DNA of 18,442 nt from a virus (lineage: Duplodnaviria; Heunggongvirae; Uroviricota; Caudoviricetes): IMG/VR virus record IMGVR_UViG_2526164602_000012, one strand, 5' to 3'. The position numbers were made by a program. Positions within the stretch are counted from its first letter, which is position 1. Each line of letters opens with the position of its first letter. Positions 6,001 to 9,000 of the stretch are shown piece by piece.

Positions 6001-9000
6001 GCTGTCTGTTTCTTTTGCGGAAAGCCCGTTGAGCTTCTTCTCTTGTTTGCCAGTATTTTTCTCGCACTGGCTGAAATAGCAGTCTTCCAGTTTTTCGAAC
6101 ACTTCCCACGCCCGATCGGTTTCGAGCATTTTTGCGTGACGGGCTGCGCCGCGTTCTGTCCAGAGGATGAGGGAGCGAACGTTACGGGCGATTTTCACAG
6201 AAGGTCTTAAAGACATGCTGTGCTTAAATTCGCGCAACTCCTCATTCTCAAGTAAAAAGTAGTGCTTACCGATAACAAATCGTCCAGAATTCCGATTGAA
6301 ATTTTTTCGGATGTAATCTGGTTCTGTGCCATATAAGCTGGCAAGAAGCTCTGTAGTCACCACAGGTATATTACTAAATGAAATTATGGAGAGGGACTCC
6401 ACGGAGATGGTTTTCATGCTTTATGTCCTACTTGATATTTTGATTTACCCCTTTTGAGAGGGTGACCGGGCGCTCAAAACCGCAAGTAGTCGGCGGGCAT
6501 ATTCCCATTGCTGGTGTTGTATTAGCCGCACGCCCGGTCATAAACCAAGAAGACTGGACACAAAAAAACCGCATGTCTGTCGGGCGCGGTAACCGCTACT
6601 TGCTAAGGTGTTTTGAGCACCATGAGGCGGAATATATCCCCGTTAATGCAGCATTGTCAAACGATCTGTTCTTTAAAGACTTAACGAGAAGCCTTTTCGG
6701 GAATTTCGATCTGACAATCTTGAAATATCCTGTAGAGTACGGCGCATTTCTTCCGTCAGATGCTTGAAGGCGTTAAATTCGGCGACAGCTGCATCGACGT
6801 TATAGCCCTTGCTGTGTAGCTCGTTGAGGATGCGCATAGTTGGGCTTGGCATATCGAAGAGCACAGAAACGTCCAGGTTAAGAGTTTTTCGATCAACATA
6901 GCTCATCATGGAGTAGGGGTGATGCTCTGAAAACCACGAGAGAGGGTAGTTGATAGATAGTGTTGATTCTGGAAGCTGAAGTTGTTCTGGGATTTTTTGA
7001 CTGAAATAGCAGTCTTCCAGTTTTTCGAACACTTCCCACGCCCGATCGGTTTCGAGCATTTTTGCGTGACGGGCTGCGCCGCGTTCTGTCCAGAGGATGA
7101 GGGAGCGGGCTTTCGGGGAAATTTGTAACCCTCTTAAAGATGGTTGCAAATTTTGTGAGTTACTTAAAGTAACCCGCAAATTTTGTGAGTAGTTTAAAGC
7201 TACCCGCAATTCTTTAAGGTCATTACCAACAACTTTGAAAAAGTGTTTCCCTTCAACGAAGCGTACTTTGTTCTCATGATGATTCTGGCGAATACGCACC
7301 GGCTCAGTGCCGTAAAGCTGCGCCAAAAGTTCGGTGGTAATAACAGGAATCTGGTTATGGGTGATCGGGGAGAGAGTTTCAACAGAAATTTTAGTTGTCA
7401 TAATGACGCCCTCTGGTGGTTTCTTAATAACTCACCACCGACGACGCCAATCGTCTGGTGGTGAACTGTGCAGGGTTGGCGTAACCGGGAAACCGACCGG
7501 CGCGGATCTCTCCGCCCCCACACAGCCCACCATAATTCAGATGTGCGCGTGCATACGACAATAAAAAACACGCTCGCGGCGTGTATCTGTCGCGGTCTCT
7601 ATCCAGGACGCCAATCCCGACGCCAGATTTTGCTGGCGTTTGAGGAATATAGCCCCGAATAAATCATCACGTCAATCACCTTGTTTTCCTCGCACGATGT
7701 CTTAGCCACCGGATATCCCACAGGTGAGCCGTGTAATTGAAGGTTTTTACGTCAGATTCTTTTGGGATTGGCTTGCGTTTATTTCTGGAGCGTTTCGTTG
7801 GAAGGTATTTGCAGTTTTCGCAGATGATGTCGGTGATACTTCGTCGCTGTCGCCTCATGCAGCCCTCCTGACGCCCAGCCCGATCGCCATCAATGCCGCT
7901 TTGGATACGGTAGTAAACATCCGTCGAGGACTGATGAACGGTCGCCAAATCAGCAACATTGAGCCTTTGCTGTTTCCCTTCTTCTCCAGCCCTGTCGATG
8001 GTTCGATAAAATTAATCCGTCCATCAGTGATGATGCGAACTTCGTCAACACTCTCCAGAGCCTTGCTGAACCATCCGACAGACATATCCTCTGGCACAAG
8101 CATCACTACCGTCTGTCGCTGTTGTATGCACTGCTCAGCGGCTTTTTCCACCCACGGCCTGATATTGCTGTACGGTGGGTTATTCCAGATTGCACCGTGG
8201 CTTATCCACTCAGAATTTAGCGCGTCGTCAGCCTCAGTTAGCCAGTGAGTGCACAGAGCGTTTTTGTCGCTCGCAGCTGAATCCAGCCAGAATCCAAACT
8301 CAATATCCAGCGCAATACAAAAAAGCCAAGAGCGGCGTTTGCCAGCAGTCCTGTCGTGTGCTGGCGTATTTGATTTGATAGTCATGCAGCCTTCCCTTTT
8401 CGTTGTGACCATTCATACTCTCGCCGGGAGTCATCACTCCACCGCACGTTGCGCTCTGAGCCGAACCAGAACATGATTTCGATAAGCTCAGTCATGCTGG
8501 CCTTTCGCATTTTGCTGGTACGCACGCCAAGCATGACAACGCCACCGTCGATACCAGGCGCACTTCTTTGCTCCAGTTTTTTGGTCTTAAGCCACAGGGC
8601 AGTGAACAGGTCTTTCCAGTCTTCCGGCGCCAGCCGTTGACCATGCCATAGCACCTGACGCGAAACATCGTTCAGCATCGGCCACATGCGGTCATTCTGC
8701 GCTTTGCTGCGCCTGGGTTCTTTAACGTGGACTTCGTGGGGTGACTTGTCGTCGATGGGTAGTGAGAGAATGGCGTCTATGGCGTTATTTCTGATTGCTT
8801 CGTTGCGAAGCAGAAAGGTTTGCTTCATCTCCTGCTCTCCGGTTCCATTTTTCAGCCGCCGCAGCAACTGATGGTGCCCATGCCCCCCTGGCTTCACAGA
8901 GGTCACATTCTGCATAGCCCCACACATCAATATTTATTCCGGCCTCAACCCACAGACGAGCATTACCGCCGCAAAACGGACATTCTTTTAGCTTTGGCTG

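Follow-up and report, generated by a model that had tools for sequence, protein, structure and literature searches.

The stretch of DNA considered here is IMG/VR virus record IMGVR_UViG_2526164602_000012 (Caudoviricetes), 18,442 nucleotides long and referred to below, in its whole length, as the window. It resembles Stx2c-type lambdoid phages, and its genes follow in the order cI, O with the origin iterons, a DnaB-like P, antA, antB, roi, ninG, a phosphatase gene, Q, three tRNA genes, and stxA. Our subject is an array of 30-bp repeats inside antA, whose product has as its sole Pfam match the ORF6N domain (PF10543; residues 12-115, 68.4 bits against a cut-off of 27.8). Coordinates of this gene, its array, and its neighbors are collected in Table 1.

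An initial annotation had placed the repeats in a second Roi-like gene and interpreted them as an in-frame minisatellite whose copy number can change, forming a linker between two domains that was replaced in the paralogue by a short unrelated segment. The minisatellite and its changing copy number have held up. The linker role, the unrelated linker of the paralogue, and the Roi identity have not: Nil2 calls the repeat gene antA and its paralogue antB, and reserves roi for the third gene of the row.

Table 1. Features of the antA locus and related features of the window (positions are those of the window)
Feature	Position	Strand	Description
antA	6673..7401	(-)	242-aa ORF6N-domain antirepressor-like gene (AnrP-like) bearing the array; name from the Nil2 annotation
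Unit A	7180-7209	(-)	Encodes LRVALNYSQN
Unit B	7150-7179	(-)	Encodes LRVTLSNSQN
Unit C	7120-7149	(-)	Degenerate; encodes LQPSLRGLQI
Dyad A	7183..7209		27-nt palindrome, centre 7196; 10/13 pairs; inner arms GTAG/CTAC; codes LRVALNYSQ
Dyad B	7153..7179		Centre 7166; 11/13 pairs; inner arms GTTAC/GTAAC; codes LRVTLSNSQ
Dyad C	7123..7149		Centre 7136; 11/13 pairs; sense-strand inner arms CCAT/AGGG; codes LQPSLRGLQ
Predicted helix-turn-helix	7273..7335	(-)	Codons 23-43; helix 23-30, G31 turn, helix 34-43 (AlphaFold)
antA upstream control module	7398..7675	(-)	Promoter-like site, isrK, C4-type RNA, 57-codon ORF
Promoter-like site	7675..7646	(-)	Promoter scan
isrK RNA	7563-7639	(-)	Rfam, 74.7 bits, at gathering score
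C4-type antisense RNA	7454-7537	(-)	Rfam, at gathering score
57-codon ORF	7398-7571	(-)	Stop overlaps the antA start (7401) as ATGA
antB	5737..6417	(-)	Paralogue, ORF6N and P22AR C-terminal domain; single dyad 6196-6222, centre 6209, 11/13 pairs
roi homologue	4940..5668		Third gene; Rha-like and KilAC domains; named roi in Nil2
O gene	11102..11923		Iterons 11502-11584

A tandem array of palindromic units

The array is the top tandem repeat of the window in Tandem Repeats Finder (period 30, 2.1 copies, 85% matches, score 86 at 7146..7209), and this run, together with translation of the open reading frame (ORF), confirms that it is in frame. Three 30-bp units, A, B, and C, span 7120-7209 and supply residues 65-94 of the 242-aa product; as in a coding minisatellite, the copies stand head to tail, the unit length is a multiple of three, and all lie inside one ORF. 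The two best copies had been placed correctly from the start, at 7146-7175 and 7176-7205. As for the degenerate copies thought to flank them, one exists as unit C, and the other, at 7206-7235, has only a CTTTAAG heptamer in common with the array and is no unit.

What the initial annotation did not describe is that each unit is a palindrome, of 27-35 bp. When 13+1+13 palindromes were scored at each position of the 18.4-kb window, 11 of 13 pairs were reached at only three positions, 7136 and 7166 in antA and 6209 in antB, with 10 pairs at 7196; no odd palindrome elsewhere in the window is as good as these four, three in antA and one in antB. By a repeat finder, the arms measure 17-19 nt and are 84-88% complementary around TTAAA centres, and those of dyad C reach 17 nt (7119-7153, 88% complementary). 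A second dyad, centred on AAATTT, arises at the unit junctions. The dyad motif was found nowhere else in the window, and CTTWAAG does not occur at its promoters.

Several other identities for the array were dropped on inspection by eye. A -1 frameshift site, A_AAT_TTG, is present at the unit junctions; its spacer is too short and it is a product of the junction only. A CRP site, a lambda Int core site, an integron attC, and CRISPR-like repeats were likewise rejected, and a promoter and terminator scan found no promoter-like site at the array.

With respect to the protein, residues 65-94 fall inside the ORF6N match (12-115), not between an N-terminal DNA-binding domain and a C-terminal one, and antB carries a homologous palindromic unit, HSMSLRPSV, centred at 6209. 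An AlphaFold model of AntA residues 1-140 (mean predicted local distance difference test score, pLDDT, 78.6) begins with strands 13-15 and 18-22, continues through the two helices and turn listed in Table 1 to strand 54-58 and helix 59-~72, and, after a low-confidence stretch over residues 74-91 of the repeat (pLDDT <50), ends with strand 100-104 and two further helices. The model thus shows the array as an insertion, of low confidence, that separates helix 59-~72 of the ORF6N domain from strand 100-104. By our own reading of the sequence, residues 23-42 fit the classical helix-turn-helix pattern, with A at 5, G at 9, and I at 15. No solved homologue of AntA was found by sequence, Foldseek gave no significant match, and the structural assignment, with a MerR-like winged helix-turn-helix as a candidate fold, is modest.

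Comparison of related phages shows that copy number does differ, from one to four units. In Nil2, 2851, and Stx2_EH1904, the gene is 759 nt long and contains unit B in two exact copies, and over 1,759 nt EH1904 differs from the window by a single 30-nt gap and 0 mismatches. Database proteins contain the combinations A, A+C, B+C, A+B, A+B+C, and A+B+B+C. Among 167 fetched gene copies, a sample biased to relatives of the query, 96 have one dyad, 40 have two, 21 have three, and 8 have four (2 have none), and the dyad centres of multi-unit genes are always exactly 30 nt apart. In a spread sample of complete Escherichia coli genomes, matches are of the window's length, 30 nt longer, or about 30 or 54 nt shorter. 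Salmonella relatives have a single unit A, and a Stx2a-phage orthologue without the repeat has, at the same spot, a single dyad with perfect 10-bp arms (CACAGAGTAG...CTACTCTGTG). Further two-unit arrays arose in other lineages, such as HRLSLSESV-SREVTESYSV in E. coli and those of Pectobacterium, Xenorhabdus, and Acinetobacter.

The dyad in ORF6N genes and its coupling to the recognition helix

To place the antA units in a wider context, 160 related loci were fetched from viral and genome collections by means of two conserved peptide motifs. The register of each dyad was chosen by maximising its score, and the nulls used the same procedure. The unique sequences number 130 and come from many genera; in about 120 of them, the palindrome that scores best within the domain keeps a constant place, 50-91 nt upstream of the AARHAKM codons. 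The 81 distinct 27-mers score 8-13 of 13 pairs, four of them perfectly, and some extend to 33-35 bp. If the protein is held fixed and synonymous codons are resampled, the observed mean of 10.5 compares with a null maximum of 7.6; for individual sequences, p<0.05 is obtained in 66/81 and p<0.01 in 46/81.

The arms also covary. When 80 distinct sites are aligned without gaps, 76% of cells pair versus 54% after shuffling, and the dyad covariation score of 0.541 (0.190 for shuffled alignments) was reached by 0 of 500 shuffles, with slid registers giving at most 0.164. Most arm positions have three or four Watson-Crick pair types. The consensus reads W-S-M-R-A-S-T-N-N-C-T-T, then W, with a conserved CTTWAAG core and with positions ±4 and ±5 variable yet complementary.

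It is important to consider the reading frame here. Of the 81 sequences, 72 have their dyad centred on codon position 2, six on position 3 (Acinetobacter-type sites, peptide FATDLKSVAN), and three on position 1 (alphaproteobacterial sites, peptide RAEGLKDPLL). From the constant position, the synonymous-codon null, the covariation, and the use of three reading frames, it follows that the conserved object is a nucleic-acid element and no peptide; the main constraint on the repeat sequence is at the nucleic-acid level. The dyad is also a clear example of a DNA signal that overlaps coding sequence and constrains it, whichever of the three frames is read.

The single dyad per gene is an old, family-wide feature of ORF6N genes. 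When eight distant members were inspected, the best local palindrome was at the same codon position in six, from Bacillus, Lactococcus (bIL285 orf6, presumably the source of the name ORF6N), Paenibacillus, Brevibacillus, Azospirillum, and Salmonella SPN3UB phages. Exact IMG/VR matches to one dyad variant, CAGAGTNNCTTWAAGNNACTCTG, lie at this position of ORF6N genes in 10 of 11 cases. The sole match outside ORF6N (L170:2482-2504) is in AT-rich sequence with stops in all frames, and it may be due to chance.

Sequence variation in the dyad follows variation in the predicted recognition helix. Permutation-corrected mutual information over 81 single-dyad genes gives a peak for the inner arm at residues 35, 36, 38, 39, 42, and 43, which share one helical face; equally variable residues nearer the dyad have less than half the mutual information of these recognition-helix residues. 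At the level of single bases, coupling is limited to dyad positions -7 to -4. Where residue 38 is R or K, base -7 is G in 43/47 genes, and where it is Q, the base is C in 25/26. H at residue 42 goes with G at base -4 in 20/20 and N with T in 8/8, and V at residue 39 goes with T and A at bases -5 and -4 in 8/8.

Three observations argue against mere linkage or shared ancestry as the source of this coupling. In each stratum of background identity, 75-100% of the gene pairs that share a helix signature share the inner arm as well, against 0-6% of the other pairs; below 70% background DNA identity, the figures are 87% and 5%, and for the adjacent outer arm, in the same pairs, 13% with a shared signature and 17% otherwise. 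Two E. coli genes that are 92% identical over the 36 nt separating helix patch from inner arms differ in both of these. Finally, the helix rule is kept by 8/8 dyads that are read in another frame and encode unrelated peptides, which means that the coupling is to nucleic acid. The coupled inner arms (-7 to -4 and +4 to +7) are 11 bp apart centre to centre, from which we infer the usual geometry of a helix-turn-helix dimer on duplex DNA.

The single-dyad genes also supply rules for sorting the units of the array. R38-Q39-H42 occurs with GTAG, K38-V39 with GTTA, and Q38-N39 with CC(A/C)T. The AntA helix reads PVRIRQNHHE (R38, Q39, H42), so unit A, with its GTAG/CTAC arms, is the predicted cognate of AntA. 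By sequence, unit B matches the K38-V39 class and unit C the Q38-N39 class, both of which occur in other E. coli prophages. When the same rules were applied to the multi-unit genes, the cognate unit was present in 37/37 genes having a rule, and exactly one was present in 36; these 37 genes represent roughly a dozen independent lineages. The non-cognate units may be either working inputs for paralogues or relics of unequal recombination. One O111 chromosome holds both a four-unit antA and a Q-N-class gene, the sole co-residence seen.

Candidate explanations for the array

On balance, we take the antA array to be a set of tandem operator-like dyad sites, 30 bp between centres, held in frame within a permissive loop of the ORF6N domain, and dimers of ORF6N proteins would probably bind these dyads. 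As would be looked for in an operator array, the antA units are dyad sites whose half-sites stand about one helical turn apart, and site and helix covary on statistical evidence. In the mechanism we propose, the recognition helix (residues 34-43) of the very domain that the units interrupt would read the inner arms as a symmetric dimer, unit A being matched to AntA, and units B and C each to a different ORF6N specificity class. A protein that binds its own transcription unit, about 190 nt in, could act as a transcriptional roadblock and so provide negative feedback; the roadblock might also affect read-through towards antB, roi, Q, and stx2. The array is on the pR-to-Q-to-stx2 path. More units would bring more occupancy, strength, or inputs, and units would be gained and lost by slippage or unequal exchange, favored by the direct repeats and by alternative hairpin registers.

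An array of this type, an intragenic operator or iteron set, would be a known kind of element in a new form; a variable coding minisatellite alone would be ordinary. Proteins of the “Bro-network”, ORF6N included, rank with the commonest phage regulators, and few of their targets are known; the analysis provides a testable predicted site, a residue-to-base code (R or K at 38 with G, and Q with C, at ±7), and a location inside the gene of the regulator. The array has the replication genes on one side and Q on the other, with the Shiga toxin 2 genes downstream; late-gene and toxin expression could therefore respond to site occupancy and to copy number, in which Stx2c prophages that are otherwise identical differ. 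A wider version of this proposal is speculative, and we think it unlikely to hold in full: ORF6N genes would generally keep their own domain's operator in the codons of a wing-like loop, so that specificity and target travel and diversify jointly, and in polylysogens such as E. coli O157, arrays of mixed class (A, B, and C in the window) would permit the antirepressor-like proteins of different prophages to act on each other's genes and, here, gate pR-to-Q/stx2 read-through.

A number of points weigh against an operator array. The covariation rests on about 80 distinct sequences that were selected by peptide pattern and are phylogenetically non-independent, and covariation at variable positions is equally expected from a hairpin or a cruciform. 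A simple operator model leaves unexplained why the outer arms, which vary independently of the helix, are kept symmetric. Two of the eight distant ORF6N genes, from Clostridium and Brochothrix phages, have no dyad. A search of the listed O157:H7 strains for paralogues of the KV and QN classes gave only partial matches to antA itself. Every functional statement made here is computational, the roadblock is pure inference, and literature searches gave no published description of the ORF6N-gene dyad.

The simplest alternative is a plain coding minisatellite, in which the repeat only resizes a floppy surface loop and the DNA symmetry has no function. The range of one to four units among relatives agrees with this, as does the low pLDDT of residues 74-91, a segment that is probably flexible and tolerant of insertions. 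It does not agree with palindromes that score above the synonymous-codon null, with compensatory changes at most arm positions, with an element kept in three reading frames over unrelated peptides, or with a dyad that is coupled to the recognition helix and not to nearby residues. We regard the plain minisatellite as highly improbable and, as a sole explanation, largely refuted.

Should the symmetry act in RNA, hairpins formed by the antA message or by a transcript antisense to it would control stability, translation, pausing, or processing, and additional copies would strengthen the effect. Region 7100-7240 does fold as three consecutive hairpins (z of -3.53 for the + strand, that is the antisense, and -2.07 for the mRNA strand), base-pair covariation is strong, and antA is already under heavy RNA-level control by isrK and the C4-type RNA. 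Against such a role, the non-Watson-Crick pairs have no strand bias (53 G·T sense vs 54 A·C), and 7100-7240 contains neither an Rfam family nor a terminator-like site, which is not what a structured RNA or terminator would give. Conservation across phages of unrelated regulatory contexts points instead to a link with the protein itself, and the four arm bases coupled to helix-turn-helix residues, with arms 11 bp apart, suit duplex DNA read by a dimer. A duplex scan of the isrK, C4-type, and Xcc1-type RNAs against the array returned only self-overlaps and none at 7116-7209, and was uninformative. Taken together, an RNA element seems to us quite improbable.

We also give little chance to the array being first of all a hot spot for recombination or cruciform formation, at which strand exchange and template switching would shuffle ORF6N halves and build arrays, and templated repair would maintain the symmetry. 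In its favor, a 113-bp block of antA (7000..7112, minus strand), covering the C-terminal half of ORF6N, is 100% identical in DNA to antB (6067-6180) and begins directly after the dyads; for the 5' halves, protein identity is only about 60%. A block that starts there marks a mosaic junction and indicates that recombination is active at this locus; it points to gene conversion in the recent past, with the dyads and the domain end as its limits. Units of the array occur singly in other genes, mosaicism between loci L026 and L057 is patchy, and the AAATTT-centred junction dyad would favor slipped structures. What a hot spot leaves unexplained is that the inner arms follow the helix class while the outer arms do not, and that a cognate unit is always kept in multi-unit genes. 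As the origin of arrays, a hot spot is compatible with operator-like sites.

Related systems and the surrounding locus

Intragenic binding sites have precedents in lambdoid phages, and one of the two closest lies in the window itself. In lambda, the O protein binds iterons lying inside its own gene. The O gene of the window has four iterons of about 16-22 bp, internally palindromic (AGCCGACTTGGCT) and spaced 20-24 bp, in the classical origin-in-gene arrangement. The antA dyads resemble lambda-type O iterons in being several dyad sites, spaced 20-30 bp, in frame inside the gene of a DNA-binding protein. The O iterons, however, are situated between the two domains of an initiator and serve as an origin, whereas the antA dyads are inside the DNA-binding domain of an antirepressor-like gene, and their units differ in predicted specificity. 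AntA has no Rep_O domain, and neither an evident initiator function nor an AT-rich unwinding region was found for antA, which sets its array apart from lambda-type iterons.

Roi is a “Bro-network” phage protein with an N-terminal helix-turn-helix, encoded between P and Q. Clerget and Boccard are said to have described in 1996 that HK022 Roi binds a site within roi, linked to an IHF site. The site proposed for AntA would similarly be inside its own gene, in the same genomic neighborhood. The N-terminal domain of Roi is Rha-like, whereas antA has only ORF6N, with no KilAC or Rha-like match, and neither a tandem array nor specificity classes have been described for Roi. No IHF-consensus match with at most one mismatch was found in antA (6673-7401), so it does not have the make-up of a Roi-type site. 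As a separate observation, the roi homologue of the window has an inverted repeat, TCAACTT-N13-AAGTTGA, at 5514-5540, at about codons 43-51, in the part encoding the N-terminal domain. Two matches to the IHF consensus, each with one mismatch, flank it (5497-5509 and 5512-5524) and are not above chance window-wide. This inverted repeat may be the published Roi site with its IHF site.

The operators of heteroimmune lambdoid phages offer another comparison. There, too, dyad symmetry is kept, the sequence varies by class, helix residues change with half-site bases, and half-sites are one helical turn apart. Those operators are intergenic and overlap promoters, whereas the antA site is about 190 nt inside the gene, in the codons of the binding domain, and one gene can carry several classes. 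Rickettsia palindromic elements show, as the ORF6N dyad does, that in-frame palindromic DNA is tolerated in surface loops of proteins. They are mobile sequences of 100-150 bp that occur across unrelated genes; the dyad, in contrast, is restricted to a single gene family, where its position is fixed and it is passed on with the gene.

Upstream of antA, the layout is that of the Gifsy-1 isrK-orf45-anrP module, for which RNA-level control of AnrP translation has been described (PMC4825925). The two share isrK, a short ORF that overlaps the next start by ATGA, and an ORF6N antirepressor-like gene. The antA module has an additional C4-type RNA between isrK and the short ORF. The terms “palindrom” and “inverted repeat” are absent from the retrieved Gifsy-1 passages (PMC4825925). 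In the window, an sRNA-Xcc1-type RNA (Rfam) lies upstream of antB at 6456-6539(-). The antA and antB RNA groups have strong promoter-like sites of their own, that of antB being at 6660..6631 and that of antA the one given in Table 1. Together they make up a tandem pair of RNA-immunity modules in the style of P1/P4, and each drives its own ORF6N gene.

Some related loci have interrupted ORF6N genes. In the IMG/VR loci L025, L027, and L172, the gene is cut at the same point (…MLETDRA, then a stop), after which an identical sequence and another ORF6N gene follow; in L111, an isolated LILW…ETNQA fragment is found upstream of a complete ORF6N gene. The pattern looks like a recurrent junction inside the conserved block.

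Elsewhere in the window, an IS3-family insertion sequence at 15912-17125(+) consists of an HTH_Tnp_1 orfA and an rve orfB with an ALIL frameshift pseudoknot (16193-16309) at their overlap; it belongs to the early-left region and has a lambda cIII thermoregulator element (17787-17845) close by. At the other end, tRNA genes for Met-CAT, Arg-TCG, and Arg-TCT are found downstream of Q (3188..3676), and the intervals 1012-1223(-) and 1579-2874(-) contain an STnc100 small RNA match, a ribosome-inactivating-protein (Shiga toxin A) ORF, and the three tRNAs. The region downstream of Q is the late-gene and toxin region of a Stx2-type prophage.

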